Part shown: positions 3,736-32,548 of the stretch, in pieces
Layout: each line of letters starts with the position of its first letter
Numbering within the stretch: the first letter of the stretch is position 1
Origin: Candidatus Melainabacteria bacterium 17Bon1m
GTDB taxonomy: Bacteria > Cyanobacteriota > Vampirovibrionia > Obscuribacterales > Obscuribacteraceae
Assembly: GCA_032128875.1 (NCBI GenBank)
Contig: JAVLKG010000003.1
Location: forward strand, 353,008-417,007
Length of the DNA: 64,000 nt
Reading direction: 5' to 3'
Notes under the pieces: generated by a model
Database searches by the model: none
Told to the model about the DNA's origin: nothing
What the model saw: the letters and a program-made list of their open reading frames with translations, nothing else
Translations under genes and position numbers: made by a program

Positions 3736-4050
3736 TCAAATTATGATCACTCGCTGAACGAAATTGTTCGGCTCCTGCGGATCGTCTGGTCCGAAGTAGA
3801 GAGGATTGATTTCGAGCGACCTCATCAGTTGTGCGATGAATTGATTGCTCTCATTTATGTCCGATTTGATTCTGTGTGCGTCAGTGCGGAAAGGGTCGCT
3901 CTTGCGGCATCCGCAGTTGTGGCTATGCACGTGACCGGCAGAATTCTGCCATGCATCTGCCTGCCCGAAGGCTACTAAATTGCTCACACATGCCTGATTT
4001 CTAGTGCAGTTTTGCAGCGAAGGAAGTAACGAAGAGTCCATATGAAACAC
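3736..4050 (-). CDS. Possible small hypothetical protein
   Basis: 104 aa ORF filling the gcvT-gcvH gap; no recognisable motif. Confidence 0.4.
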   Translation of the reverse strand: MFHMDSSLLPSLQNCTRNQACVSNLVAFGQADAWQNSAGHVHSHNCGCRKSDPFRTDAHRIKSDINESNQFIAQLMRSLEINPLYFGPDDPQEPNNFVQRVIII

Positions 4051-4377
4051 AAAGTGTCGCTACGGAGAGAATGTCGAGAACTTTTGCCGGGATTGCGATA
4101 CGCATTTCAAAACTCACTTTCTAGTACATAGTTTTCAGGACGGACGCCCGTCCGATGTGTTCCTTAACGTAACGTCGATGTTAATTAGGGAGATTTGCGA
4201 AAAGATTTCCAAAATTAGATCCAATATCTAGGCAGGCAAGAATTACAGGCGCTTTCGTATGGTGTTAAGATCTTGATTCTGCTGCTGAAGAGGCCGTTTA
4301 TGGCGGGTGCCAAGAGCCTCTTAGCATTTGCAGCAGGTCACGCTCGAAACCCAGAAAGAAATAGACGGAGAATCCGC

Positions 4378-8190: not shown

Positions 8191-9234
8191 ATGGATTTTC
8201 ATACTCTCGATCCTATATTTTCCGAAATCTCCCGTCTGGCTACATCCGACGAGTATGCCGTACCTTTCTGGGCGGCGATTTTATGGCTTTTGCTGTTGCT
8301 TAACAGGCGCGCGTCACTTCGTCTAATTTGGCGCAAGCTCCACATATTTCAGGACAGCACTCTCGAAACCGAAGCTTATTCCAAGATCAATGCTCCTCTG
8401 CAAGCCTTTCTGTTGCTGCTTGCCGGATTTCCCTTCCTTCGGCTTTTGCCGCACGGTATCGGGAAAAACCTTACGCCGCTTGCGATTTGTATAACAGCAT
8501 TTCTGGGGTTGCACGTATTTGTTTGTGCCCTGGACCTGGCGCTATTTGGCTGGTTTTTCGCAAAGAGGCAGGATGCAAACGTTCCTTCCATTTTTCGCTT
8601 TGTCGTTCTGACGGCTGTCTATGTTGGCGTGGGCTTGATTTTGCTCAACGTCACGCTTGGCATCAATATTATGCCTTTGCTGGCAACATCGACCATCATC
8701 ACGGCCGTCTTTGGTTTTGCGCTGCAAGACACCTTAAAAAATCTCTTCTCAGGGCTAACCATGAGCTTTGAAAAGCGCTTCAAGCAAGGCGATTGGATTC
8801 AAGTGGGTACTGATCCAGCGACGGCAACACTGGGGCAGGTTGTGGAAATCGGCTGGCGTTCTACTAAAGTGCGTTTGAAAGATGATGATTTTGCGGTTAT
8901 TCCAAATCAGCAATGTACCGCCAGTCTGCTCGTCAACTTGACTTCGCCGAAGTCCACACACCTGATTTCTGTTGACTTTCCGGTCAAGCATAAGGTGGAT
9001 GTTGAAAAGCTGCGGAAGACTCTTGTAAAGCTTGCGTCTGGTGTAGAAGGTGTCGTGAAAGAGCCGCCTGTAGAGCTTTTGGCGGTCGGCATTAAGACCG
9101 ACCATTTGATTTTACGGCTCAGATTCTGGATTGAAGACCTGCTTAAGAAGGACCACGTGCAGTCCGAGATTATTGAAAAGACGTACAAAAAGCTTGCTGA
9201 AGATGACCTTCTGCCCCCGAGCGACAGCAAGTGA
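8191..9234 (+). CDS. MscS family mechanosensitive channel
   Basis: GFALQDTLKNLFSG, FKQGDWI, GQVVEIGWRST, VIPN motifs. Confidence 0.92.
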   Translation: MDFHTLDPIFSEISRLATSDEYAVPFWAAILWLLLLLNRRASLRLIWRKLHIFQDSTLETEAYSKINAPLQAFLLLLAGFPFLRLLPHGIGKNLTPLAICITAFLGLHVFVCALDLALFGWFFAKRQDANVPSIFRFVVLTAVYVGVGLILLNVTLGINIMPLLATSTIITAVFGFALQDTLKNLFSGLTMSFEKRFKQGDWIQVGTDPATATLGQVVEIGWRSTKVRLKDDDFAVIPNQQCTASLLVNLTSPKSTHLISVDFPVKHKVDVEKLRKTLVKLASGVEGVVKEPPVELLAVGIKTDHLILRLRFWIEDLLKKDHVQSEIIEKTYKKLAEDDLLPPSDSK

Positions 9235-18878: not shown

Positions 18879-20105
18879 ATGACTGGCAAGCATCTCCACG
18901 TTTTTCCACAAGAAGCGACTGTTCAATTGGGACAAGTCACTTATTCTGCGGTGGTGGAAAAACCTGATGGGCAAAAGGAAAAACTCTGGTATCGTCTGCC
19001 TGAAGCGTATCTCGATGCAATCGATGACAGCGCCGACTATCTAGTGATAGCTAACATCTTTCAGGCGATGGAAGCAGGTGTGGACTGCCGCGTTCACGGT
19101 AGAGTGTCGAGTACTTTGTTGCGAAACGTGTCTGAGTTTCAAAGCCTCTGGGCAACCTGGTTTCCAGAGCGCTACAAGTGCGTGGACATTATTGCTGATA
19201 TTGAAGATGGTCCCAATATTTACGGAAATGGTTCGAATCACTCAGGTGACGAACATGGCGGAGCAGCTGTTTTGAATGCGGCAATTGCTGCATATACAGG
19301 CGGAATCGACAGCTCCTACACTGTTATGCGACACCATCGAAAACTATGCGGGCGAATGACTCAACCTTTGCGCGCTTGTCTTTTCGTGCATGGATTCGAC
19401 ATACCCTTGCCAGATGAGGATGCGTTTCGGCGGGTCGAAGAACGGCTAAAGAAGACTCTTTTGGATACGAACCTTGAATTAATTCCAATGGCAAGCAATC
19501 ACAAAGAATTAAATCAACAATGGGATCACACTCACATTGCCGGCGTCGCATCTTGCCTTATGTTGCTGAGTAAACGCTTCGATAGAGCCCTCATCGGAAG
19601 TACATTTACGTATCACGAAGCGTCCATGAAGTGGGGCAGCAACCCTATTTCCGACCGCCTGCTTTCCAGCCACAGGATGAGTTTCTTTCATGATGGTGCT
19701 GAAACCGGGCGCGGTGGAAAAATGGTGGCGCTGCGCGATTGGCCTGAAGCATATGATGATTTGCGCATATGCTGGAGCGCTGCCAACAAGGACGAAAATT
19801 GTGGAACGTGCGGAAAGTGCGCGTTGAGTTTGCTGGGCTTTAGGTATAAAAATCTTCCCTTGCCGAAGTCCTTTCCTTCGGGTCTTTCAGAATCAATGAT
19901 CGAAAATCTGGTCTTTGACGAATCGCATTTGGGAGCTGCCGAAACACTCTTGAAGTTTGCATTGAGAGAATCAGAGCAAGCACCGTGGGTAGCGGCACTA
20001 AAGAAGTGCGTGAAAACCAATCAGGAACGATTGGGCGCCACGAATAGCGGCAAAGGTACATTCTATAGCCGTGTGAAACGCAGGCTTGGTCGCCTTACGC
20101 AGTAA
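18879..20105 (+). CDS. PP-loop (adenine nucleotide alpha-hydrolase-like) protein with QueC-like Cys motif, copy 1
   Basis: YTGGIDSSY PP-loop and RICW..NCGTCGKC motif; paralog of 31272-32447. Confidence 0.75.
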   Translation: MTGKHLHVFPQEATVQLGQVTYSAVVEKPDGQKEKLWYRLPEAYLDAIDDSADYLVIANIFQAMEAGVDCRVHGRVSSTLLRNVSEFQSLWATWFPERYKCVDIIADIEDGPNIYGNGSNHSGDEHGGAAVLNAAIAAYTGGIDSSYTVMRHHRKLCGRMTQPLRACLFVHGFDIPLPDEDAFRRVEERLKKTLLDTNLELIPMASNHKELNQQWDHTHIAGVASCLMLLSKRFDRALIGSTFTYHEASMKWGSNPISDRLLSSHRMSFFHDGAETGRGGKMVALRDWPEAYDDLRICWSAANKDENCGTCGKCALSLLGFRYKNLPLPKSFPSGLSESMIENLVFDESHLGAAETLLKFALRESEQAPWVAALKKCVKTNQERLGATNSGKGTFYSRVKRRLGRLTQ

Positions 20106-20119
20106 TTTTAGGATCATTC

Positions 20120-20172
20120 GTAGGGGCGGCGCATGCGCCGCCCTGGCAGGGAGCCGCATGCGGCTCCCCTAC
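20120..20172. repeat. Inverted pair of GTAG-type REP palindromes between convergent genes
   Basis: GTAGGGGCGGCGCATGCGCCGCCC ... GGGAGCCGCATGCGGCTCCCCTAC. Confidence 0.85.
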
Positions 20173-20205
20173 TTTAAAGTGTTAACGACCGACATCGCTA
20201 AGGTG

Positions 20206-21006
20206 TTAAAGTCCGACGCCCAGAGCCAGCAAGGCGCATTTGTCCAAGCCGTCAAAACCTAGAGATGAATTGATTTCTGAGTCTACGAATCCCGCGGTTG
20301 CACAGACGCAAAGTCCGAGTGCGTTTGCAGTCAAATAGATGTTTTCTGAGACGTGACCGGCATCCATTAATCCGAGCCTGTATGCTCTAATGGTGTATTT
20401 CTCCGCCAGGCGAGCCATATCGCAAGACAGAATCAGTACAGCGCCAGCGTCGCCAAATTCGACTTGAAGAATTCCGAATTCCTTGAGCCAGGTCGAGAAA
20501 TTGCCTTTTTTCTTTAACACGAGTTCGTGCTTGCGCCGATCAAATCTATAGATCCCCGGCTCAACTCCTTCGATATTTAAAACAAATAGGTCTATTTGGG
20601 TTGAAGCTAATCCGCCTGCGGAGGGGAAGTTGAAGCCAGCCCCGTAACTCGTTTCTGTTTTGTCGGAAGCTTCAGTCGCCTGCGTACGTGCGCCATTTGC
20701 AAGATACAATACCTTTGCTAAATGCGACACTGGAAGAGCTTTGTTGGAAAAACTCTTCTTGCTCGTTCGATTCGTGATTGCTGTTTGTACTGGCATATCT
20801 GCACTTACAGCATTTACATCGAGTTTGATTCGCACTTCTTGCGCAGCACCTTCGACCGTCTTTTCGGCGGTCTCGCTGCCTAGAGGTGAAGCACTTCGTT
20901 CATAGTTCATCTCATAAGATGCGCGGTTCCATTTCGCAGCCTTTTTGTTACAGCTTTCAGTGTGGTAGACATCGGCGCTTGAGCCGGGATTGTGGATTAG
21001 TTTCAT
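20206..21006 (-). CDS. SagB/ThcOx family FMN-dependent azoline dehydrogenase, cassette 1
   Basis: NRTSKKSF, FPSAGGL, GIYRFD, KYTIRAYR, DAGHVSENIYL, GFVD nitroreductase-fold motifs. Confidence 0.9.
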   Translation of the reverse strand: MKLIHNPGSSADVYHTESCNKKAAKWNRASYEMNYERSASPLGSETAEKTVEGAAQEVRIKLDVNAVSADMPVQTAITNRTSKKSFSNKALPVSHLAKVLYLANGARTQATEASDKTETSYGAGFNFPSAGGLASTQIDLFVLNIEGVEPGIYRFDRRKHELVLKKKGNFSTWLKEFGILQVEFGDAGAVLILSCDMARLAEKYTIRAYRLGLMDAGHVSENIYLTANALGLCVCATAGFVDSEINSSLGFDGLDKCALLALGVGL

Positions 21007-21008
21007 AC

Positions 21009-22316
21009 TTATGGAAATGGATGTGCGTCGTGGTTGAAGTCTTTTGCAGAACGTTGAGTTGGAGTGTCATTGCATAAACGTGGGCAAGCGAGCCAGCGCA
21101 CTTTGTGAGCGACAATCAAAGGCACCATTTCCGGTACCGTCACTTTGACGCACACGCCAAGTTCGCTGGCTTCGGTCGAGGTGAGATCGCTCCACATAAC
21201 GGTCAATCCAATTTCTTCCAGGCGTCTTGCGACGTTTGCCAAATCCTCCATGGAATGTGGCGCCTGAAGCCAATCTCTGTCCTTATAGTCTTGCAGTGTA
21301 ATTTCATTCGTATTGTCTTTTAGAAGGAAGTCCAACGCTGGACTATTGGGCCAATTTGCATAGAGATTGGCGTGGTCGGAAAATGATTTGACCCAATCGA
21401 ATTCGGTAAATGACTGAACCACTGCATCGCTTCCAAATTTATGTTGCGCAAAACGTATTGCCATCGCTTCGTCGATCGCGCCGCAGCATGCGATTTCAGC
21501 ATCTTCATGGGCCGATGCACCGGCAACATAATATGGAAAGCGTTCGCTTTCTAATACGCAAAATACTGCCGGTATCGGAAAGTCGCGCGTCATGCTGAAA
21601 ATGTTTACTCTTGTCCCGCTCTTTTCTATAAGTGAGATGCGCTGCCCAAGCTCTCGCCCGACAGATTCCTTTTCTATGCGCAATTTTGGTATAGAAACTT
21701 TATTGAGCCAAAAGATCATCATCTGATCTCTTTCGGCAAGTTCGAGCAAACCTGACCAGATCGCTTGTACTCTATTGCTGTAGAACGAAAGTCCGGCAGA
21801 AGTGGGAAGAGCGATGAGCGGTTCTGGAGCTTTCGCCCAGAACGACATGTGCACAGTGCCTGCGGGAATCCAGTAATCCTTTCCGTCGCTTCCGTCCTTC
21901 AAACGTTTTGCCGGTGTATGAGTTAGAAGTGTGTCGTCTGCATAGCCGATACCTGGACCTTTGAAGCTGTCGCTGCATGTTTCATCGGGCAAGCAATAGG
22001 GAAACAGTTTCAAAAGCTCGCTATCCCCTGCTTTCATCTGTCGCAGTTCCGCTGAGTGCAGTGAGTTGTAGCCCGTATAACGCTCGACTGCTTCACCTAG
22101 TGCACGCAGCATTGCTTCGTTGGGATCCAGCGAACAGCCCAAAGCATTGGGCGTGTCGGCAGTAAAAAACTTTCCTATCGTTCGAACCAGGTCGCCTTGG
22201 TACAGCCACCACGGCGGTTCTGGTCGCTCCAGGCGCATTCCCCGAAAGCGTGTAATCGGTCCGAACCGGGGGTTTACCCAATTCAAAACCGGTGCAAGCG
22301 GTCCTGGGCTATGCAT
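21009..22316 (-). CDS. YcaO cyclodehydratase (D protein), cassette 1
   Basis: GEAVERY, SAGLS, LELAERD, IDEA ATP-binding motifs; C-terminal HPFP; ATG 22316 overlaps the upstream gene end. Confidence 0.92.
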   Translation of the reverse strand: MHSPGPLAPVLNWVNPRFGPITRFRGMRLERPEPPWWLYQGDLVRTIGKFFTADTPNALGCSLDPNEAMLRALGEAVERYTGYNSLHSAELRQMKAGDSELLKLFPYCLPDETCSDSFKGPGIGYADDTLLTHTPAKRLKDGSDGKDYWIPAGTVHMSFWAKAPEPLIALPTSAGLSFYSNRVQAIWSGLLELAERDQMMIFWLNKVSIPKLRIEKESVGRELGQRISLIEKSGTRVNIFSMTRDFPIPAVFCVLESERFPYYVAGASAHEDAEIACCGAIDEAMAIRFAQHKFGSDAVVQSFTEFDWVKSFSDHANLYANWPNSPALDFLLKDNTNEITLQDYKDRDWLQAPHSMEDLANVARRLEEIGLTVMWSDLTSTEASELGVCVKVTVPEMVPLIVAHKVRWLACPRLCNDTPTQRSAKDFNHDAHPFP

Positions 22317-23448
22317 ATGCAGAGTCTCTTTCCGGCTGCACGTCGCCACGGACATCAACCGCGCCACTGAAACAGTCAGGGCATCGTGCAACCTTTTTGA
22401 CTTTGAGTTGCTCGGTGTGTCCATCAAAAGTGTTGAATATCACTGCTCCTAATGTGACAGGCAAGCTGATCTTGGTTATCGCTCTAATAACTTCCATAGA
22501 AATTTGCGCACCTCCTGCGGTGGCAAAGGCCAGGGATTCTCCCTGCATTGGTCTTTCGCTCTTAGGCAAGGATTCTATATGCTGCGAATAGAGGGATTCT
22601 TCGATAGGGTGATCGCTAGCGCTGCGCGTGCGCAAGACATAGCACGTGTAGCAAGCTGTATCGCGAGGCACTACGAGTGGACCGATTTCGAGTTCTACCG
22701 CACTCTCATTTGCGCGCAGCCAATCAATTGGCGTTTCGAGCGAAATTTGGTTGATGCGGTTGAAAAAGCTTTGAGGTGCGTTTCGCGTAGCTGTGACCAA
22801 AAGATCTGCTGTGTCTACTTTCGATTCAATTAATTCGGCAAGGGTGTCGAGGGTGTCGGCATGGGTATAGCTAGTCTGCATGCCATTGTTTTGCGCATCT
22901 TCAACTAATTTCTTTAGGTCTGTGTTGTTAAGTCTGTCGATCACTTCAATTGTATTGATGCCCGATCGGTGCAGAATATCGAACGTGCAGCATCCTAAAA
23001 GCCCGTCGGCGACAAGAACTATCTTCGCTCCCTTCAGTTTGCTTTCCACTTCTTTGGCTGATGTATTGTTGCGCGTAAAACCAAGTTTTCTACCCCAGAA
23101 TAAGCGCTGTTTCGCGTCCAGCCCTTGTTTGCCTGTCTCTACCGATGCCTCTTTCGTCTCGGCATCGACCAAATAGCCCTTTCTAACGAGCAGTAATAGC
23201 AGCTCTTCAATCTCAGCCTCATGTGAGCCAGCTGGGCGACTTTTGACGATGTTTTCCAATGATGTCTTTTGCTTAAGTTCGCCAATTAGCCAGGGCATCA
23301 AGCCGACTGCAAGCCGCCCGCGCACTACAAGATTTGTCGCGCCACCGCGCACTTGCATCCCCAACCCGTCAGGCATTTCGAAGACGTCGAGGTCATCAAC
23401 CAGGGTTGGTTTCTTGGGAAAGCGTAAGTTCGGGTCTTTGATAGTCAT
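22309..23448 (-). CDS. E1/ThiF-like leader-peptide-binding partner of YcaO (C protein) with N-terminal RRE-like region, cassette 1
   Basis: Winged-helix-like N-terminus (LLLLVRKGYLVD), Rossmann-like IVLVADGLLG, IGPLVVPRDTACYTC, C-terminal RCPDC. Confidence 0.88.
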   Translation of the reverse strand: MTIKDPNLRFPKKPTLVDDLDVFEMPDGLGMQVRGGATNLVVRGRLAVGLMPWLIGELKQKTSLENIVKSRPAGSHEAEIEELLLLLVRKGYLVDAETKEASVETGKQGLDAKQRLFWGRKLGFTRNNTSAKEVESKLKGAKIVLVADGLLGCCTFDILHRSGINTIEVIDRLNNTDLKKLVEDAQNNGMQTSYTHADTLDTLAELIESKVDTADLLVTATRNAPQSFFNRINQISLETPIDWLRANESAVELEIGPLVVPRDTACYTCYVLRTRSASDHPIEESLYSQHIESLPKSERPMQGESLAFATAGGAQISMEVIRAITKISLPVTLGAVIFNTFDGHTEQLKVKKVARCPDCFSGAVDVRGDVQPERDSAYA

Positions 23449-23560: not shown

Positions 23561-23761
23561 TTAGAAATCTGCCAATGGTGTCGGCGGCACGAATTCGCAG
23601 CCATCGCAGGCGCACGGTCCTTTCGGAACTGCCATTTTCTGATTGCGTTGCGAGATGGTTTCAACAACCAGCAATTTCTCAACATCAGTGTTGTTCAGAT
23701 AGTTGAGGTAATCGGCTTGGAAGTCTGCAGTTTCGGTGATTGTGTTCTTTAGAGATGACAT
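23561..23761 (-). CDS. RiPP precursor peptide A3 (66 aa; core ...KGPCACDGCEFVPPTPLADF)
   Basis: AGGGG RBS before ATG 23761; paralog of A1 and A2; adjacent to YcaO machinery. Confidence 0.88.
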   Translation of the reverse strand: MSSLKNTITETADFQADYLNYLNNTDVEKLLVVETISQRNQKMAVPKGPCACDGCEFVPPTPLADF

Positions 23762-23783: not shown

Positions 23784-23987
23784 TTAGAACTGAAAATCTG
23801 GTGTTGGGGGTTGGAATTGGCAGCCGTCGCATGCGCAGGGACCCGACGGCTTGGCCATGCGCTGATTGCGCTGAGAAAGGGTTTCAGCGACAAGCATCTT
23901 ATCGAGTTGTTCGTTGGCGTTCAGATAGTTCAAATAATCTGATTCGAACTCGTTTGTCTGGCTTGTAGTTTGATTTTTGGCTGACAT
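23784..23987 (-). CDS. RiPP precursor peptide A2 (67 aa; core ...SGPCACDGCQFQPPTPDFQF)
   Basis: AAAGGG RBS; paralog of A1 and A3. Confidence 0.9.
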   Translation of the reverse strand: MSAKNQTTSQTNEFESDYLNYLNANEQLDKMLVAETLSQRNQRMAKPSGPCACDGCQFQPPTPDFQF

Positions 23988-24010: not shown

Positions 24011-24211
24011 TTAGAAACTAAAATCTGGCTGCGGTGGTTGAAATGTGCAGTTGTCACATGCACACGGACCCGATGGCTTGCTCACGGTTTGTTGTTGCTG
24101 AGAGAGAGTCTGAGCAACAAGGGCTTCGTCAGCGCCTTGTTTGAAATCGAGATAGGTTTGGTAATCTTGCAGAAATTCCAAAGCTTCGTTTGACTGAAAA
24201 TTGTTTGACAC
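24011..24211 (-). CDS. RiPP precursor peptide A1 (66 aa; core ...SGPCACDNCTFQPPQPDFSF)
   Basis: GTG start at 24211 with AGAGGG RBS gives a length matching the paralogs. Confidence 0.88.
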   Translation of the reverse strand: MSNNFQSNEALEFLQDYQTYLDFKQGADEALVAQTLSQQQQTVSKPSGPCACDNCTFQPPQPDFSF

Positions 24212-24348
24212 AGCTTCCCTCTCTATTAATGATGGCCACTTATCCCTGGCCGCCGAAAGCATATTATCTTATTGACAATCTTGGTGGCGTAACAGTGGGC
24301 GCGGAATTCGGCGATAATGCAAAAGGTTACGAACCGGACAGCATCGCA

Positions 24349-25704
24349 GTGAGTCCAGATTCCACCCCGGACCTTAACTCCCCGACGGGACAAGAAAGAG
24401 CGACCGGGAAATCAAATTCAGCTATTGATTCGCTCTTTTCCTTCTTTCTGCTGTCGGAAGATGGATTAGATGCGCTGAGCCGAATAATGGGCTTGCTTTC
24501 GATTTACACGTGTTTCGAAATCTTTAAAAGGCTTAATTGGTTAAGAGCGGAGTATCAAGTCGAATCCTGGTGGTGGCGGGACCAGTGTCTTGCGTTGCCT
24601 GATTCTGAAACCCTGGCCATTATTTTGCTTTCCATCTGTGCCATCGCCGGACTTGCGATGGTGTTCGGCGTAAGAAGTAAGCTGGCGCCAGCCGTGGTGG
24701 CATTATGCGTCTTGTACCTGACATGTTTGGACGTGAATATTGCATTTCCGCATAGCTTTTTTCTTGCCATTTGGGTTTGTGTGGCGTTGATCTTCAGGCG
24801 CGCCAGAAGGTCCGCAACCCGCCGCCTTATCCAGCTTGCTTTGTTCGCTTGTTATTCGCTTTCCGCCCTGCAAAAGATCTTTACCCCGCAGTTTATTCAA
24901 GGGGATTCGCTTGCGGCATTGAAATACGGACCCAACCTGGATGCCTGGGTCTTGAAGGCTGTCAGCCAGATTCCCAGTTCGTCGGGATTGTGGCAGCTTT
25001 TCGCAATCGTCGTCGTTGTTGTCGAACTCGCTCTTGCGCTTGGCCTGTGGCATCCGAAGACTCGCAAGTTTGCTGTCGTTGGCATCATTGTGTTTCAGTC
25101 GCTGATTCTTCTGACCATGGATCCGCGCATTCTGCCTCTTCACTTGATGATCTGTCTTTGCTGTCTTTCCTTTGTCAACCCAGTTGCAATTGAAAAGCGA
25201 TTTGCATGGCTGACGAATAGAGTCGAAGCGTCCGCCGGTTCTCTTGCTGGTTTGAAAGAGCTGGACTGTAAGCCACCAGGGGTGGTGTACACAACACTTA
25301 CCATTCTCGCCACTGGGATCTTCTTTGCTATCCCATTAAGGATTTATCTCTATCCGAACGCATTCGAGCAAATGTCGATGATGGACAGGCGTCCATGGAC
25401 ATTTTGCATGTTTGTGTGTTTGGAAGGGCGGTACAAGACAAGCATTGTCTTGAAACGAAAAGACGGCAATCTAGTCTGGGTTGAACCACGCGGAAGAATG
25501 GCTTACTTGTCCAGCGACACTGACATGCTGGCGTTAGCAAAGTATCTGGAAAAAACATATCCAGGCGTTTTGGAAATCAAAATAGAGTCGCAATACGACG
25601 TAAACATGACCAGCCGAGACCACAAGGTTCTCACGGCGCAAGCTTGTGATATCGGAGGCTTTAAACACCGAATAAGCTGGCACAGAGAGGCTTTAAAATA
25701 CTAG
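24349..25704 (+). CDS. HTTM-domain membrane protein (SdpB/vitamin K-dependent carboxylase N-terminal-like); start uncertain
   Basis: Multiple TMs with YSLSALQK...FIQGDSL and VVELALALGLW.PKTRK motifs typical of HTTM; soluble C-domain with PWTFCMF. Confidence 0.7.
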   Translation: MSPDSTPDLNSPTGQERATGKSNSAIDSLFSFFLLSEDGLDALSRIMGLLSIYTCFEIFKRLNWLRAEYQVESWWWRDQCLALPDSETLAIILLSICAIAGLAMVFGVRSKLAPAVVALCVLYLTCLDVNIAFPHSFFLAIWVCVALIFRRARRSATRRLIQLALFACYSLSALQKIFTPQFIQGDSLAALKYGPNLDAWVLKAVSQIPSSSGLWQLFAIVVVVVELALALGLWHPKTRKFAVVGIIVFQSLILLTMDPRILPLHLMICLCCLSFVNPVAIEKRFAWLTNRVEASAGSLAGLKELDCKPPGVVYTTLTILATGIFFAIPLRIYLYPNAFEQMSMMDRRPWTFCMFVCLEGRYKTSIVLKRKDGNLVWVEPRGRMAYLSSDTDMLALAKYLEKTYPGVLEIKIESQYDVNMTSRDHKVLTAQACDIGGFKHRISWHREALKY

Positions 25705-26630
25705 TTACGCATGCCAAGTTTTTTCAGCGCTACATAGGAAATTTGCTTGGCTAGCCTGGGAGCGCTTGCAAGAATCTGCTCTGAGTGTTGTGCCTGTTTT
25801 TCGAGTGTTTCATACTGTTGCAAGAGATCGTGAAACTCCTTGCTTAGCTTCTCATAAGTCGCTTGTCTGGTATCAACTTCTGGCTTCACGTAATTTTGAG
25901 TCTGCATATTTTTGATCATGCCTTCAAGCATTCGAGGCAAATGCTCCTTTGTAGACTCAAGATGTTGAAGAAGTACTTTTAAAAATTCGAGGTCCAGCGT
26001 TTTGACGTTTTGGCTCCAGGAATCAGAGTGCCTGCGATAAAAGTATAAGGGCTCAGGATGGTAAGCAAATTTAGTGCCGATTTCTAGAAGCGAAATCCAA
26101 AATTCAGTGTCCACAATTGCTTTTATGTTCTTGTATCCACCAACTTTGTCATAAGATTCTCGCTTTAGAAGCAGAGTGTTGTGTGGATAGTGTCCTGAAA
26201 TAATATCTCCCAGGTCGGCGCTAGGCTTATACACATAGTTGTGAATGCCGAAGACTTGAACATCGCTAAAGGCAGCAGAAGCATTGTTTTCGTTCATCAC
26301 TTTGAGCGTCGCTTCAATGTAGTTTGGTGCGATTAAATCATCGCTATCCAGTGGCAGTAGCAGCTCTCCATTGCTGTTGCGGGCTGCGGTATTTCGAGTT
26401 TCACCATTCCCGCGGTTGGTTTCATGGCGGAAAATCCTGATGCGGGGATCGCTGAAATTTGCCAGCACTTCATCAGCTGGGCAAACAGGAGAACAATCAT
26501 CGACAATGACGAGTTCCCAGTTTTGATAAGTCTGTGCGACCACGCTGTTGACGGTTTCCACCAGATAATTGCCAAGTTTGTAATACGGAGTAAGTATGCT
26601 CACTAGTGGTTGAGCTGTAGTCGTTTTCAT
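25701..26630 (-). CDS. GT2 glycosyltransferase with C-terminal coiled coil
   Basis: VSILTPYY, QTYQNWELVIVDDCS, RN, LDSDD, VGGY, YRRH. Confidence 0.92.
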   Translation of the reverse strand: MKTTTAQPLVSILTPYYKLGNYLVETVNSVVAQTYQNWELVIVDDCSPVCPADEVLANFSDPRIRIFRHETNRGNGETRNTAARNSNGELLLPLDSDDLIAPNYIEATLKVMNENNASAAFSDVQVFGIHNYVYKPSADLGDIISGHYPHNTLLLKRESYDKVGGYKNIKAIVDTEFWISLLEIGTKFAYHPEPLYFYRRHSDSWSQNVKTLDLEFLKVLLQHLESTKEHLPRMLEGMIKNMQTQNYVKPEVDTRQATYEKLSKEFHDLLQQYETLEKQAQHSEQILASAPRLAKQISYVALKKLGMRN

Positions 26631-26638
26631 TGCTCGAT

Positions 26639-27559
26639 TTACCGCAACCCCGCCTTTTTCAAGGAAACATACGAAAGTTGGCGCGTCAGTTGCGGCAGGC
26701 TCGCCAGCATTTCTTCATTGCGCCTGACACGTTTTTCCAAACTTTCATACTTTGCTCTCAGGTCGGCGTATTCTGATTGCAAATGAGAAATTTCCGAGTC
26801 GATTTGGCTGGTGCTTTGTGCGGCATAGTAAGCCGCCTTCTGCTCTATCCATTTTTCGAGCACGACTTCCAAGTGTTGGGAAAGTGAATGATGATGTGAA
26901 AGCAAGACTTCCAGAAAATCTTTCGCGACTGCTGAACCTCGCATGCGCATGAGTCCATCTTCATGAGTGCGATACAGATAGAGGGGCTCTTCCACGAATG
27001 CGAATTTAACGCCTGATTCGATTGCTGAAATCCAAAACTCAGTATCTTCGATTGCAGCAATGGGCTTGTAGCCACCTACTGAGTCATAGACTTCTCGCTT
27101 CATTAGCAGTGTATTGCAGGGATAATGCCCTGAAAAAATGTCGCATAGGCGTGTGCTGGGCGTGTAGATAAAATCGAATTTTCCGAAGTACTTTACTTGC
27201 GAGTAAGCGGCTGATGATCCCGTTTCTCCCAAGGCTCTCAACATTTTTTCGATGTAGGTCGGCTCCAGCAAGTCGTCTGAATCGAGTGGCAATAGATATT
27301 CGCCTTTGCTGTTTGAAGCGGCAGTGTTGCGCGCTGCCGATACACCTAGATTTGAATCGTGCCGCAATAAGCGGATGCGCGGATCGGTTTGCTGCGCAAG
27401 TACAGAGGTTGCCGACATTTCTGGAGAGCAATCGTCAACAACAAGGAGTTCCCAGTTTTGGTAAGTTTGCCTCTTGACTGACTCAACTGCTTCGACCAGG
27501 AACTGACCAAGTCGGTAGTAGGGCATCAAAATGCTGATGAGAGGTTGGTTCGACTGCAT
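26639..27559 (-). CDS. GT2 glycosyltransferase with C-terminal coiled coil (tandem paralog)
   Basis: ISILMPYY, QTYQNWELLVVDDCS, GVSAARN, LDSDD, EDTEFW. Confidence 0.92.
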   Translation of the reverse strand: MQSNQPLISILMPYYRLGQFLVEAVESVKRQTYQNWELLVVDDCSPEMSATSVLAQQTDPRIRLLRHDSNLGVSAARNTAASNSKGEYLLPLDSDDLLEPTYIEKMLRALGETGSSAAYSQVKYFGKFDFIYTPSTRLCDIFSGHYPCNTLLMKREVYDSVGGYKPIAAIEDTEFWISAIESGVKFAFVEEPLYLYRTHEDGLMRMRGSAVAKDFLEVLLSHHHSLSQHLEVVLEKWIEQKAAYYAAQSTSQIDSEISHLQSEYADLRAKYESLEKRVRRNEEMLASLPQLTRQLSYVSLKKAGLR

Positions 27560-27711
27560 CTTTGGATATCCTCTGTCTGCTGTACTTTAAAGAACCCGCT
27601 ATTTCAACAAGTTAGTTCTGTGTAATTTTGGAGTTTTATCTTTTTCAATTGACACTCGACATCAGGCCAAGTGGTTAGCATTGTGGATAGGGGTCATCCA
27701 GGAGTTCTAGT

Positions 27712-27966
27712 ATGGGTTTTCGCAAGTCATTCAGTAGCGGCTATCTCGGTTACGTGAAAGCTACAACGCGTTCCAGTGCAGAGGGTCTACAGTCCTTTGC
27801 TTTGGGTCAAAACAATTCGAATTCGCAAGGCTTTTCGGCAGCTGGTCCATGCTCTTGTGCTTGCACATGCCCTTGCGCATGCGCCAGCTCCTGCTCATGC
27901 GCTTGTACTTGCCCATGTGCCTGCGGCAGTAGTTGCTTTACTCCTCCTGCTCCTACAGATAACTAA
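27712..27966 (+). CDS. RiPP precursor peptide B (84 aa; 13-Cys alternating core)
   Basis: AGGAG RBS; core GPCSCACTCPCACASSCSCACTCPCACGSSCFTPPAPTDN; first gene of cassette 2. Confidence 0.92.
   Translation: MGFRKSFSSGYLGYVKATTRSSAEGLQSFALGQNNSNSQGFSAAGPCSCACTCPCACASSCSCACTCPCACGSSCFTPPAPTDN
27850..27933 (+). repeat. 2 x 42-nt coding repeat (CSCACTCPCAC[AG]SS)
   Basis: Amino acids identical at 13 of 14 positions while most codons differ. Confidence 0.85.
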
Positions 27967-28033
27967 GCCAGCTGTCTCTATCTTCTAAAGCACCGGGCAT
28001 CGTAAAATGAATCTTGCCCTGTGAGCGTATGTC

Positions 28034-29176
28034 ATGCCAGAGAAGGACAATAAGAAGGCGCTTTCCTTTTTGAAGGAAGGCGGCACTAACTTTCCGAAGC
28101 GGCCAAAACTAGTGGAAGACGTCCTGGTCTTTCACATGCCGGACGGTTTGGGCATGCAATTTCGCGGACTATCCAGCCCTGTTGTATTGCGGGGGGCACT
28201 TGTCGAAGCGCTGCTTCCAAAGCTATTGCCCTTGCTGAATGGAGAGCATGAGATTTCGCAGCTGTTTGAGAAGTGCGGCGCAGAATTTGAGCCCGCTGAT
28301 GTGGCGGCCCTTCTTTTGAGTCTTTTTACCCGTGGGGCAATTGCAGAGGCGGAAGCGGAAAGATATCCCCAGGCTGTTGTTGATAGAAAGACTCTGCTCT
28401 TTCATGGAAGAAGGTTAGGCGTAACTCGCAATAACAATTCTTCTTCGCAAGTCGTGAAGAAGTTATCGCGCGCTCACATTGTGGTAATTGCCGATGGATT
28501 GCTTGGTGCAAGCACCATCGATTTGTTGAGTCGATCCGGTTTTGAGAAGATTTCCGCAGCAGCTCTAAAATCAAGTACAGATGCAGCTGAAATTTTTTGC
28601 GAATTGCAGAGCGAATTCAACGTCGAGTACATCGAAGGAAACGAGAACGGCATCAAGAACTTCTTGCACGGGCGCCAGGAATCAGCCGACCTTGTATTAG
28701 CAGCACTACGCAATGTGCCGCAATCTCTCTTTGTCGCGCTCAATGAAGAATGCGTTCAAGCAAATGTTGAATGGTTGCGCGCTTACGACAATGGCAGTGT
28801 TATAGAGTTGGGTCCTTATGTAAACCCGCACGATACCGCGTGTTTTGAATGCATGCTTGTGCGTGAAATTAGCGCCGGCGAGCATTCTGTAGAGGAAGAG
28901 CTTTATCAGAAATTTCTTGAAGAAGGCAGGTCTACCGATTTTATGTGCGGTGAGTCGATAGCGCTGGCAACTCAGGCTGCTGCATACTTGACCCAGGAAG
29001 CCGTGCGAATAGTCACTGCCATTGAAAAACCTCAGTTGGACGGACGCGTACTTAGCTTTCACTCGGATGGTAACATCGATCAAAATACCTTCACACGCGT
29101 GCCGCGATGCGAAGTGTGCGCACGAGCCGGAGCCTTGGTTTTGCCGGAGAAAGAGCATGCCAGTAAGCTCTCGTGA
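28034..29176 (+). CDS. E1/ThiF-like leader-binding partner (C protein) with RRE-like region, cassette 2
   Basis: Paralog of 22309-23448 (FPKRPKLVEDV.VF.MPDGLGMQ.RG, LGPYVNPHDTACFEC, RCEVC). Confidence 0.88.
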   Translation: MPEKDNKKALSFLKEGGTNFPKRPKLVEDVLVFHMPDGLGMQFRGLSSPVVLRGALVEALLPKLLPLLNGEHEISQLFEKCGAEFEPADVAALLLSLFTRGAIAEAEAERYPQAVVDRKTLLFHGRRLGVTRNNNSSSQVVKKLSRAHIVVIADGLLGASTIDLLSRSGFEKISAAALKSSTDAAEIFCELQSEFNVEYIEGNENGIKNFLHGRQESADLVLAALRNVPQSLFVALNEECVQANVEWLRAYDNGSVIELGPYVNPHDTACFECMLVREISAGEHSVEEELYQKFLEEGRSTDFMCGESIALATQAAAYLTQEAVRIVTAIEKPQLDGRVLSFHSDGNIDQNTFTRVPRCEVCARAGALVLPEKEHASKLS

Positions 29177-30476
29177 AAAACTGGGAAGCCTTGCTTCGGT
29201 TTTGGATCTGGTCGATGACAGGTTCGGTCCGGTTAAGAGCATCTACGGCATAAAGACGACCGGGAAACAACCGCCATTCTGGGTTTTTCACGCTCAACTG
29301 ACGCGCCCTTTGGGACAGTATTTTGTTGATTATGACTGTGACGCTTGGGGCTCTTCCGTCGACAAGGATGAAGCCTTGTTCAAATGCCTGGGTGAAGTTC
29401 TCGAGCGTTACTGCATGTACAACACCTTTTTAACCGGAGAATTTGCGCAGCTTCCGGCATCTGAATGCCAATTGCTCAGGCAGTTTCCACGTTGTGCTCC
29501 TGACGAGAGATGCGCCGATTCATATAAGGAAATATCGCCAGACTGGACTTTGACGATGGCATCCGTCAAGGAAGTTGCAACAGGTAATGCCCATTGGATT
29601 CCCGCAGGCTACGTAGACTTTTCCTATCAGTCTCCTGAAGGCGAGCCAAGAGTGACACTGTCGCATTCGTCCGGTTCGGCATTCCATGAAAATCTTCACC
29701 GAGCAATATGGGCTGGGCTCTGCGAAGTTGCTGAAAGAGACGCATTTTCGCTTTTTTGGCTGAACCAATATTGCGCCAAAGAGATAACTTTTGATCTGAA
29801 TTTCGGCAGCGATACTGCAGAATTAAATTCCCTGGCAAAGCGACTGAAACTCATTAAAGACTCAGGATTGCGAGTTCGCAGCTTTGATATTACGACTGAT
29901 TTTAGAGTCCCGACGGTTTTTTCAGTCGTTCAGGGCGATGAATTTCCGTTTGCCACTTTTGGTGCCTCTTGCTCTGCAGATCCTGTGAAGGCTGTAATTA
30001 AGTCGATTGATGAAGTCTTTCTGGTGCGCTTAGCACAGCTCAGTGGTGAAAAGGAGGTTCTCGATGCTCCGTCTTATACAGACTTCTCCTGGGTTAATCA
30101 ATTGCGCGATCACTGCGATCTTTACGCTAGGTGGCAAGACACTCCAGCATTCGATTTCTTCATGAAAAAGTCGGAGACCATCTCGCTTTCAGAGTTACGG
30201 CAAATGAGCTGGTGGTCCGAGCCTGACAGTTACGAGCAGCTGCGCGATACATGTGCGATGCTTCAAGAGCGCCTTGGCATGACGGTTTTGTTTATGGACT
30301 GCACGCTTGATGATGTATCAAAATTTGGAGTTGGAATCAAAGTTGTGGTCCCGCAAATGCAGCCGATCAGTGTGCCAGAGTCGCTCAAATGGTTGGCGCA
30401 CTTGCGCCTCGCTCAGCATGCTGAAAGACTATCGCTCAAGTGTGCGAGCAATCCTTACCCGCATCCATTTCCATAG
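29157..30476 (+). CDS. YcaO cyclodehydratase (D protein), cassette 2
   Basis: GEVLERY, SSGSA, CEVAERD, IDEV; C-terminal PYPHPFP; start ATG 29157. Confidence 0.93.
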   Translation: MPVSSREKLGSLASVLDLVDDRFGPVKSIYGIKTTGKQPPFWVFHAQLTRPLGQYFVDYDCDAWGSSVDKDEALFKCLGEVLERYCMYNTFLTGEFAQLPASECQLLRQFPRCAPDERCADSYKEISPDWTLTMASVKEVATGNAHWIPAGYVDFSYQSPEGEPRVTLSHSSGSAFHENLHRAIWAGLCEVAERDAFSLFWLNQYCAKEITFDLNFGSDTAELNSLAKRLKLIKDSGLRVRSFDITTDFRVPTVFSVVQGDEFPFATFGASCSADPVKAVIKSIDEVFLVRLAQLSGEKEVLDAPSYTDFSWVNQLRDHCDLYARWQDTPAFDFFMKKSETISLSELRQMSWWSEPDSYEQLRDTCAMLQERLGMTVLFMDCTLDDVSKFGVGIKVVVPQMQPISVPESLKWLAHLRLAQHAERLSLKCASNPYPHPFP

Positions 30477-30484
30477 GTAGACAA

Positions 30485-31267
30485 ATGCGAATTACAGAAA
30501 GGAAAATGGCTGCAGACCTCGCTTGTGACTATCACACAGCGAGCAATAATTCTCCATGGCTGCTGAAGTTGCCTGTGATTCGTCAGGTCAACTACAGCGA
30601 GCACGTTCAAGAATTGATGGATGAAGGTCCGAGGCAAATCGATTCGGTAACAGATGTTCGAACTTTTCAGCAAGTTGCCGAGACATCTGAAATGACTTTG
30701 CTAGAGGCGCTTGCGCGCAGAAAAAGCTCACGGGAATTTTCTAAAGTTGCTCTGGATTTGCAAAAGTTGGGTCAATTACTCGGACTTTCTAATGGGCTGC
30801 GCAACAAAGTAGGCAATGCCAATGACGGAGGGAGAAACGCTCCCAGTGCCGGGAGCCTTTGCTCTTGTGAAATGTATGTGTTGGCGCTGAACGTCGCTGA
30901 TCTTGAAAAAGGTATTTACCACTATGATGTGGGCGCTCATGGATTGAAGAAGATCAAACTCGGCGATTTCAAAGAATGGTCGAAGCGAATGCTTCTTCTG
31001 CAGTCGGAATTGTGCGACTCTGCGGCGTTGATTTTTCTTGCCAGCAATCAAGGACGCTTGCGCAGCAAATATGGTCCTCGCGCATATAGACTGGGTTTAC
31101 TGGATGCAGGGCATGTTTCTGAGAACCTCTATCTGGTGTCAGCTGCGCTCAATCTTTCAGTGACAGCTACGGGTGGTTTTATTGATGATGAGATAAATCA
31201 TTCGCTCGGCTTGGACGGAGTCGATGATTGCGTAGTGCTTGTTCTGGCGGTTGGTGAACCGGGCTGA
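30485..31267 (+). CDS. SagB/ThcOx family azoline dehydrogenase, cassette 2
   Basis: RRKSSREF, APSAGSL, GIYHYD, KYGPRAYR, DAGHVSENLYL, GGFID. Confidence 0.92.
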   Translation: MRITERKMAADLACDYHTASNNSPWLLKLPVIRQVNYSEHVQELMDEGPRQIDSVTDVRTFQQVAETSEMTLLEALARRKSSREFSKVALDLQKLGQLLGLSNGLRNKVGNANDGGRNAPSAGSLCSCEMYVLALNVADLEKGIYHYDVGAHGLKKIKLGDFKEWSKRMLLLQSELCDSAALIFLASNQGRLRSKYGPRAYRLGLLDAGHVSENLYLVSAALNLSVTATGGFIDDEINHSLGLDGVDDCVVLVLAVGEPG

Positions 31268-31271
31268 GCAG

Positions 31272-32447
31272 CTAATATGGCGGCTTTCCAAACAGGGCTT
31301 TTATTCTCTCGCTGGTCTGTTTTAGTCCGTGGTGAATTGTATTCTTCGGCCTTAAGCGTTGCCGATTAGTCGCTATCAAATCGGAGAGCTGATTGCGAAA
31401 CGGTAGTCTGTTGCCTATTTTCAGAAGGGTTTCTAATGCCTCGAGATGAACCTCGTCAAGTTCTTCAATATCTTGAAAAACATCTTCAGACAGCGCTTGT
31501 GGAAATGAGCAAGGCGTCGGAAGCTGCAACATGCTGATAAGCATTAGTGTGATCAAGCACTTTCCGCACCGCCCGCAGTTTTGGTCTTTCTTCGGATTTG
31601 AGTAACAGACGCGAATTCGCTCGTAAGCTGTCTGCCATTCGCGCAAATGATAAAGCTTAGAGCCGCGATTCCAAATGGCACCATCATGGAAAATGGAAAA
31701 ATTTCTGCTGGACATTAGATGATCACTTGTCGGATTGCTGCCCCAGAGCGGCGCCAGGTCGTTGTAGCAGTAGGTGCCTGGAATAATTCCTTCGGAAAAG
31801 GTGCGCTTGAAAAATGTCAAACAAGATGCAATTCCGGCTGCATGCGTTTCATTCCAGTCAGGAAAGAGAAGGCGATGATTGGACTGAATTGGATACAGAG
31901 GCACGCCGACAGACTTGAGCGTGTCTTGATTCGTCCTGAACGCTCGTTGGTAAGCCTCTTCATCTTCCAGCGGAATGTCAAAGCCATGCACAAAAAGCGC
32001 TGCTCCCAGATTGCGTTTTAGTCGACCGCAAATTCCCGATGCGTGTCGATAAACCGTAAAACTGCTGTCGAGTCCGCCGGAGAAAGCGCATATAGAGCGA
32101 TCAAGGTCGGGAAAAACATCTGTCTCTGCCTCAGTTTGGGCAGTAATTTCCACCCGACTGTATTTGCCAGGCAGGTTGGCGTACCAGTAAGCCTGGAATT
32201 CCATCAAATTGCGAATGAGGAATGGAGAGACTGTGCCATGAACATGCACGTTAGCTTTAGCAGTCATCGCTGCGAAAATTGCGGCAATGAGGTAAGGTTC
32301 TGCACTTCCCGTCAAATTTTGCGCAAGCTCTTCCGACACCCTGTACCAGAGCTGTTTGCGTTCTCCATTGGGAAATTCGATTTCGGCCGAAAGCTCGACT
32401 TGTCCGTCAACCAGCTTGGGCTCTAATGGGTAAATATTGGTACGCAT
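31272..32447 (-). CDS. PP-loop protein with QueC-like Cys motif, copy 2
   Basis: FSGGLDSSF and RVCY..NCGRCGKC; paralog of 18879-20105; start ATG 32447. Confidence 0.75.
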   Translation of the reverse strand: MRTNIYPLEPKLVDGQVELSAEIEFPNGERKQLWYRVSEELAQNLTGSAEPYLIAAIFAAMTAKANVHVHGTVSPFLIRNLMEFQAYWYANLPGKYSRVEITAQTEAETDVFPDLDRSICAFSGGLDSSFTVYRHASGICGRLKRNLGAALFVHGFDIPLEDEEAYQRAFRTNQDTLKSVGVPLYPIQSNHRLLFPDWNETHAAGIASCLTFFKRTFSEGIIPGTYCYNDLAPLWGSNPTSDHLMSSRNFSIFHDGAIWNRGSKLYHLREWQTAYERIRVCYSNPKKDQNCGRCGKCLITLMLISMLQLPTPCSFPQALSEDVFQDIEELDEVHLEALETLLKIGNRLPFRNQLSDLIATNRQRLRPKNTIHHGLKQTSERIKALFGKPPY

Positions 32448-32548
32448 ACTGCATTTGTATAACAATGCCGAATGCATAATCATGAGACGGTTGTCATGTT
32501 GCTTTTGGCTGAGCGAGTAGACTGATAGAAAAACGCAGTCCTCTGACC

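Follow-up and report, generated by a model that had tools for sequence, protein, structure and literature searches.

Precursor B, an alternating-cysteine peptide conserved within one genus of non-photosynthetic cyanobacterial relatives, is a likely LAP/TOMM precursor

The question raised by this locus is whether a short reading frame with a Cys at every second position of its core encodes a real peptide and, if so, what the enzyme genes that stand directly behind it would make of that peptide. The frame lies on the forward strand at 27712..27966 of the window (the whole 64,000-nt stretch of DNA that was analyzed), which comes from a 7.55-Mb assembly of 35 contigs that is 93% complete. It opens with ATG, has a GGAG sequence 8 nt 5′ of this start codon, and encodes a peptide of 84 aa, here termed precursor B, with orthologs in five other genomes. 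Residues 1-46 (27712-27849) form the leader and residues 47-84 (27850-27963) the core and tail, followed by the stop codon at 27964-27966. The C-terminal part of the peptide reads ...AAGP-CSCACTCPCACASS-CSCACTCPCACGSS-C-FTPPAPTDN; of this, the two 14-aa core units, as delimited by codon comparison and Tandem Repeats Finder, occupy 27850..27891 (+) and 27892..27933 (+), and the last Cys (C75) with the tail FTPPAPTDN occupies 27934..27963 (+). The core was found to contain 13 Cys, arranged as two alternating runs of six and a single final Cys; four of the 13 are preceded by Pro. A 13-Cys alternating core with two 14-aa units had been the starting point of the original prediction, and this description was confirmed by translation of the ORF as well as by Tandem Repeats Finder, which detected an array of period 42 over 27850-27929 (score 104; 1.9 copies with 78% matches). 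A scan of 27400-28200 revealed no promoter-like or terminator-like site around precursor B. The whole stretch is present in three sequencing runs labeled as RNA-Seq, but these assembled into a 21,015-nt contig identical to that from the sample's DNA run, and their flat depth is to be read as presence of the DNA, not as transcription.

Comparison of the two core units revealed that 10 of the 14 codons and 12 of the 42 nucleotides differ and that 13 of the 14 residues are kept. The mismatches were concentrated at third codon positions (9/14 vs 3/28 for first and second positions combined; Fisher p = 6e-4); by the Nei-Gojobori method, 9.0 synonymous differences were counted over 9.0 sites and 3.0 non-synonymous differences over 33. 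The same pattern was observed between orthologs. Relatives of the YcaO enzyme encoded next to precursor B were identified in 11 of 61 related genomes (the window genome counted), and a small orthologous gene was found immediately 5′ of the C gene, in the same orientation, in all five loci that had a YcaO at least 60% identical and readable upstream DNA (G003, G007, G011, G008, and G010); a sixth locus, G001, was left out of this count because its contig stops just past the C gene. Together with the window, these loci provide six orthologs, all with a GGAG-type motif 6-10 nt 5′ of the start and an N-terminus of the form M-[GS]-x-R-K-[SA]-F-S. Twelve Cys columns are invariant across the six, with both TGC and TGT in use at 10 of these 12, and C75, F76, P78, and P81 are likewise invariant. 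Variable sites in the core were distributed over codon positions 1, 2, and 3 as 21, 12, and 33 of 36, respectively. For the closest pair (window and G003), pN and pS were 0.05 and 0.70 in the core and 0.16 and 0.49 in the leader. Overall, the comparisons indicate that purifying selection acts on the peptide in this frame, as had been proposed from the two units by themselves, and they identify precursor B as a real gene that is conserved within one genus.

Precursor B is followed on the same strand, after a gap of 67 nt, by the three genes of cassette 2. The first, C2 (28034..29176, +), encodes a 380-aa E1/ThiF-like protein, the presumptive leader-binding partner of the cyclodehydratase, which was identified by Pfam ThiF and by TIGR03882 (46.2 bits, cutoff 36.9). 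C2 was also matched by TIGR03603 (E 2.1e-12, far under the cutoff of that model) and displayed a weak N-terminal winged-helix match (E 0.0052), and a CxxC...CxxC arrangement is kept in all 14 C proteins that were aligned. The second gene, D2 (29022..30476, +), encodes a YcaO cyclodehydratase, matched over positions 2-324 of 325 by PF02624 (E 8.4e-48) and over positions 1-377 of 377 by TIGR03604 (E 1.8e-56), with a score of 191.7 bits that lies below the NCBI cutoff of 219.25. The listed D2 ORF overlaps C2, and its true start is probably the Met at ~29157. The third, B2 (30440..31267, +), encodes a SagB-type FMN dehydrogenase according to TIGR03605 (130.8 bits, cutoff 78.4) and Pfam Nitroreductase. 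D2 terminates in PYPHPFP and B2 contains a Lys-Tyr pair, both of which we take to be motifs needed in TOMM enzymes. Among solved structures, C2 and D2 are closest, at distant E-values (4e-8 to 7e-6), to MusD, LynD, and TruD, which are heterocyclases that form azolines. A complex of C2 residues 1-125 with precursor residues 1-50, predicted with alignments, scored 0.00 against a mark of 0.32, a result that weighs neither way.

The original prediction had assigned precursor B to cassette 2 as its own set of enzymes, and this pairing was upheld. Not only do C, D, and B follow the precursor on one strand, but the order precursor-C-D-B is kept in 5/5 related loci with upstream DNA (6/6 including the window). 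The window also carries a paralogous cassette 1 (20206..23448, −; C 22309-23448, D 21009-22427, and B 20206-21006) with three precursor-A genes of its own (24011-24262, 23784-23987, and 23561-23761, −). Since precursor B and cassette 2 are both present in G008 (86% complete) and G010 (64% complete), and cassette 1 was not found in either of these genomes, precursor B belongs with cassette 2. The locus combines the elements by which LAP/TOMM clusters are recognized: an adjacent YcaO D protein, an E1/ThiF-like C protein, a SagB-type B protein, and a short peptide with a leader and a core rich in Cys, Ser, and Thr.

Based on enzyme identity, synteny, and selection, precursor B is likely a LAP/TOMM precursor that is processed by cassette 2 to carry up to 13 thiazoles at alternate positions. 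By analogy with characterized C/D/B systems, (i) the E1-like C2 protein would bind the 46-residue leader; (ii) the YcaO protein D2 would use ATP to cyclodehydrate the core Cys residues to azolines, possibly along with Ser or Thr residues flanked by Cys; and (iii) the SagB-type flavoprotein B2 would oxidize the azolines to azoles. As many as 13 thiazoles would be expected because a Cys occupies every second position, and each ring would bear the side chain of whichever residue precedes it (Ser, Ala, Thr, Pro, or Gly), with contiguous tri-azoles conceivable at the CSC and CTC sites. The chain of up to 13 thiazol(in)es put forward originally is, thus, a straightforward prediction from the enzyme set, to which we infer the further steps of leader removal, export, and a choice among the residues to be cyclized. 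Several observations were counted against the LAP reading: (i) the scores of D2 and C2 below the cutoffs of TIGR03604 and TIGR03603, respectively; (ii) the negative scan for promoter-like and terminator-like sites; (iii) the density of the substrate, with 13 Cys spaced by one residue and four of them preceded by Pro; (iv) the finding that the core is conserved more than the leader in close pairs, the opposite of many RiPP families; and (v) the gene content between 17 and 37 kb of the window, where nothing was recognized as a leader peptidase, an immunity gene, or a dedicated transporter. As to what the product would do, an antibiotic or cytolytic peptide is a guess.

Each of the two cassettes is adjoined by a QueC-family PP-loop protein. 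The one beside cassette 2, u403 (31272..32483, −; 403 aa), has a QatC-like architecture, and its paralog u408 (18879..20105, +; 408 aa, 40% identity to u403) adjoins cassette 1. Neither u403 nor u408 was matched by a Pfam family. Among 50 sequences of the u403 family, residues G136, G137, D139, C293, C303, C306, and C309 are invariant and correspond to an SGGxDS PP-loop and a four-Cys zinc site. A structure model of u403 (pLDDT 90.7) was found to align with QatC over 299 residues (VIA Z 16.6, rmsd 4.4 Å, model residues 11-375, 14% identity) and with QueC over 127-322 (Z 13.9); Cap9 was likewise matched over the core (Z ~13-14). On this model, u403 has a QueC core fold with N- and C-terminal extensions in the manner of QatC. 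QatC, which like Cap9 is a QueC-family protein of anti-phage systems, shares the same three-part architecture with u403 and u408; it differs in the low identity noted above and in that the usual neighbors of the u403 family are glycan genes. The partners QatA, QatB, and QatD are absent beside u403 and u408, PADLOC models gave no match for u403, u408, or two neighboring proteins, and a search of the window genome, which is 93% complete, turned up no QueD (PTPS) gene. Outside the window, a 442-aa frame was noted (G000:C5:234967-235125) with a weak QueC-domain match at the zinc-site region, and this frame possibly encodes another u403-family protein.

The neighborhood of these proteins bears on whether the product of precursor B is glycosylated, is otherwise coupled to what the glycan genes on either side make (GT2a/GT2b, u403, GT2c, and a pyruvyl transferase), or is modified by the QueC-family protein. 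Glycan genes stand on both sides of cassette 2. Two of them, the GT2 glycosyltransferase genes GT2a and GT2b (25701-26630 and 26639-27559, −), are divergent from precursor B and adjoin it in 5/5 related loci. A u403/u408-type protein is found beside every C/D/B cassette examined (10/10 loci), including G020, where the gene is on the same strand 50 nt before C. Furthermore, QueC-family proteins are reported to target and modify protein N-termini, and the SGGxDS and four-Cys motifs are listed in the same report (PMC13279940); in a review of the family, the words RiPP and YcaO are absent (PMC13329287). Against these points stands a survey of the u403 family (232 relatives, 79 loci kept) in which C/D/B genes were located within 7 kb in only 10 of the 79 loci and in none of the other 69, as judged with C/D/B models built from this clade only, which very distant YcaO genes could escape. 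When 13 other u403-family loci were inspected, a polysaccharide pyruvyl transferase was found nearby in 10, often with GT2 and Asn-synthase-like genes. The block u403-GT2c-pyruvyl transferase-DUF4832 in the window is the same glycan module, and two Obscuribacterales loci have this module without any cassette. The adjacency may therefore reflect insertion of the cassettes into a glycan locus. A peptide product that is glycosylated, joined to a glycan, or QueC-modified is, therefore, considered quite unlikely.

Two narrower assignments within this neighborhood were set aside. A SunS-like function of GT2b, as a glycosyltransferase acting on peptides, was rejected because the solved structures that match it best are polysaccharide transferases. 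A function of u403/u408 as a dedicated RiPP tailoring enzyme was suggested by one member fused to PqqD, and was weakened by the 10/79 and 10/13 counts. The two proteins represent an uncharacterized QueC-family branch in glycan loci, for which a role in peptide maturation is possible. The most far-reaching proposal, in which the full poly-thiazole is formed (the longest regularly alternating one in RiPPs) and is also modified by the QatC-like enzyme or joined to the glycan of the flanking genes, strikes us as unlikely. If true, non-photosynthetic cyanobacteria would have a new RiPP subclass of their own, and the QatC-like modification would provide the first peptide natural-product substrate for a QatC-like enzyme.

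The reading of precursor B as a LAP/TOMM precursor was further examined through its distant relatives. A profile of the six orthologs was compared with 1.84 billion representative proteins and returned 10 matches at E <= 1e-3, of which three were orthologs, five had the common leader with other cores, and two were judged spurious. P0101 (1964 aa, 11 stretches) was rejected as a relative, as was P0103, which has a Cys-Val repeat without the leader. Among the five leader-sharing relatives, all from metagenomes, two have short cores with ~2 Cys and three have Cys-X tracts with 7, 8, and 9 Cys. A second profile search of 5.8 billion proteins brought together 14 members, and all of the named ones are hypothetical proteins of Melainabacteria/Obscuribacterales. 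Distant C/D/B loci of the same order were found to encode a similar leader followed by a core that starts with G-P-C and has either one Cys (G002 and G006) or four (G020). Precursors of this distant type were located by the leader motif and the G-P-C junction at 8440-9042 (+) of L025, 3227-3412 (−) of L026, and 3898-4092 (−) of L024. In G002, three single-Cys precursor genes were observed between the B and D genes.

Leader B was found by hhalign to match the single-Cys leaders of the G002 and G006 loci over columns 1-48 with a probability of 85% (E 6.9e-6). The corresponding comparisons with leader A were weak, both for leader B (probability 8%, E 0.004) and for the single-Cys family (10%, E 0.003). 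Precursors A and B may nonetheless form one leader superfamily, an assignment that draws on motifs in one register and on the paralogous cassettes and to which no significant score contributes. When 19 precursors were aligned together, no variation was seen at Y14, G45, or C47; the leader of precursor B has a conserved F-x3-Y-x2-Y-[LV] motif and ends in A-G-P. A tree of the YcaO enzymes placed the six that are paired with (Cys-X)12-15 precursors in one clade (support 97/96), nested in a lineage whose outer members have short cores. As judged from these sequences, the long Cys-X tract is a derived expansion, inserted with the G-P-C junction found throughout the family on its N-terminal side and a conserved C-F-x-P-P-x-P tail on its C-terminal side.

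This history can also be turned into an argument for a metallothionein-like peptide, which would act mainly through free or partly modified thiols, with modification by the cassette confined to the conserved first Cys or a few others. The classic motif of metallothioneins is C-X-C, and the single Cys after G-P in distant family members suggests that the enzymes ancestrally needed one ring, so that the additional Cys residues may serve otherwise. Precursor B, however, was matched by no metallothionein family, nor by any other Pfam or NCBIfam family, at E <= 10 (within this range, HMMER filters drop most matches above ~0.1). In addition, the first 46 residues of the peptide form a leader with homology to those of RiPPs, and the gene precedes a C/D/B cassette in 6/6 genomes, whereas metallothioneins need neither a leader nor a cyclodehydratase. 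We thus view a thiol-based function of this type as a poor prospect.

The repeat structure was next compared across homologs with regard to the unit from which the core is built. The number of Cys varies from 12 to 15 among the orthologs of the genus. The 14-aa duplication is clear in only three of the six orthologs, and indels between orthologs were found to be two-residue steps. The internal spacer that separates the two Cys runs reads ASS in two of the six (window and G011), whereas G003 has ACS and G010 has FSS; G007 and G008 lack a spacer altogether and have an unbroken Cys-X run. By comparison, the terminal x-S-S-C-F-x-P is invariant in all six. Since indels come two residues at a time, and since the Cys number among relatives varies over 12-15, 7-9, ~2, and 1, the functional and evolutionary unit is the dipeptide Cys-X, with the 14-aa duplication specific to one clade. 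Variation in repeat number was thus borne out in terms of a Cys-X step, and the 14-aa duplication did not hold as the building principle.

The same data bear on the suggestion, made originally from the SS spacers, that the two units are separate cores released at these sites. In its favor, the units of the window peptide are near-identical and each ends in SS, and multi-core precursors exist, e.g., in cyanobactins and among the flavazolicin precursors described in PMC7136475. The internal spacer is variable or absent among the six orthologs, however, and neither recognition sequences next to the units nor a protease gene within the cluster came to light; in PMC7136475, an extra protease is noted exactly where precursors are fused. 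Two separately released cores are, therefore, very improbable, and the suggestion was dropped.

The profile searches also bear on whether precursor B is a gene at all. Full-length matches were found in only six of 301 genomes of the class, all of one genus. Weaker matches in seven further genomes proved to be TGY-type simple repeats without the leader, two of nine with internal stops. The notion that precursor B is itself a TGY-rich simple repeat read in frame by chance, to which the weak matches of such repeats in related genomes lend some color, can practically be discounted given its ribosome-binding motif, conserved leader, third-position-dominated substitutions, and conserved synteny. The period-42 core array is neither a chance occurrence nor a simple-repeat artifact.

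LAP precursors with periodic Cys are already known (Cxx, Cxxx, and one dipeptide-repeat case), and the alternate-Cys family adds a new variant that, in the sequences searched, has been found so far only in non-photosynthetic cyanobacterial relatives. Among the known systems, the heterocycloanthracins of the Bacillus cereus group are described (PMC2674419 and PMC4603692) as having a long periodic Cys tract, with thirteen Cys in one Bacillus precursor, and as varying in length by indels of whole units. The heterocycloanthracin tracts are Gly-rich and of period three (Cys-Xaa-Xaa), whereas precursor B is of period two. Their clusters also have a fused, N-terminally truncated C-D protein together with an F protein, and the precursor is usually distant; here, by contrast, C and D are encoded by discrete genes next to that of the precursor. 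The heterocycloanthracin precursor model TIGR03601 did not match precursor B, and TIGR03693, the test for the heterocycloanthracin ocin-ThiF-like F protein, gave 23 bits against a cutoff of 561.9. Lactazolicins, with 8-12 Cxxx repeats, and phazolicin, in which every third residue is converted to an azole, resemble precursor B in the regular spacing of heterocyclizable residues (PMC7136475); they differ in period (four or three), leaders, hosts, and clusters.

A precedent for the period-two pattern is provided by the Streptolysin-S-like TOMM precursor of Staphylococcus aureus RF122, which is cited as having repeated Cys-containing dipeptides (Haft 2009, PMC2674419). Nothing further was found in the literature on the RF122 streptolysin S-like thiazole peptide. 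Genes for a CaaX-type protease and for an ABC exporter are part of SLS-type clusters, whereas no Pfam family of either kind was detected among ORFs of at least 100 aa between 14 and 44 kb around precursor B; the nearest ABC genes are at 58-60 kb of the window. The leader of precursor B is unrelated to any curated family, and the residues between its Cys include the non-cyclizable Ala, Pro, Gly, Phe, Asp, and Glu. TruD, LynD, and MusD, the distant solved relatives of C2 and D2, are from the photosynthetic cyanobacteria, the sister lineage; they are fused C-D proteins of ~780 aa, and no cyanobactin proteases were seen at the present locus. The literature search revealed no YcaO precursor peptide with alternating Cys, although Table S2 of PMC4603692, a list of TOMM precursors, may contain other Cys-X cores.

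For Vampirovibrionia (Melainabacteria), including Obscuribacter, the literature search identified, among the papers listed, no characterized ribosomal natural product and no work on YcaO. With one precursor and three enzymes, the present cluster is a compact, testable system. If a thiazole is indeed formed at every second residue, it would test how far a C/D/B cyclodehydratase runs on a maximally dense substrate. The growth of the core within one lineage from one Cys to fifteen, by Cys-X steps, serves as a clear natural example of RiPP core expansion, and the co-located QatC-like proteins provide a lead to the unsolved chemistry of that enzyme family.

The remaining neighbors were also inspected. 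The three precursor-A cores are nearly identical and follow the pattern GP-CAC-D[GN]-C-x-F-x-PP-x-P (three Cys, one Asp), and the F-x-P-P-x-P tail is common to precursors A and B. The precursor-A type is commoner in public data than the B type, with one variant present on 25 contigs. A 504-aa multi-pass membrane protein with weak DoxX/MauE-like matches is encoded at 24190..25704 (+); its gene accompanies cassette 1, and loci that lack this cassette retain no more than short remnants of it. The protein may serve the A peptides in export or immunity. Comparison of the window at 25701-30476 with L020 of G011 revealed a mosaic identity pattern: identity is 91% for the proteins of cassette 1 and 95-97% for u403 and GT2c, whereas GT2a, GT2b, precursor B, C2, and D2 are 55-71% identical. 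The YcaO trees of cassettes 1 and 2 group the genomes differently. These patterns suggest recombination or fast evolution of the segment from GT2a to D2. Finally, an element of ~55 bp with two GC-rich hairpins was observed at 20117-20173, between the convergent ends of u408 and B1. With 53 genome-wide matches and a break at this point in the assembly of each of the four sequencing runs, the element looks like a REP- or MITE-like dispersed repeat.
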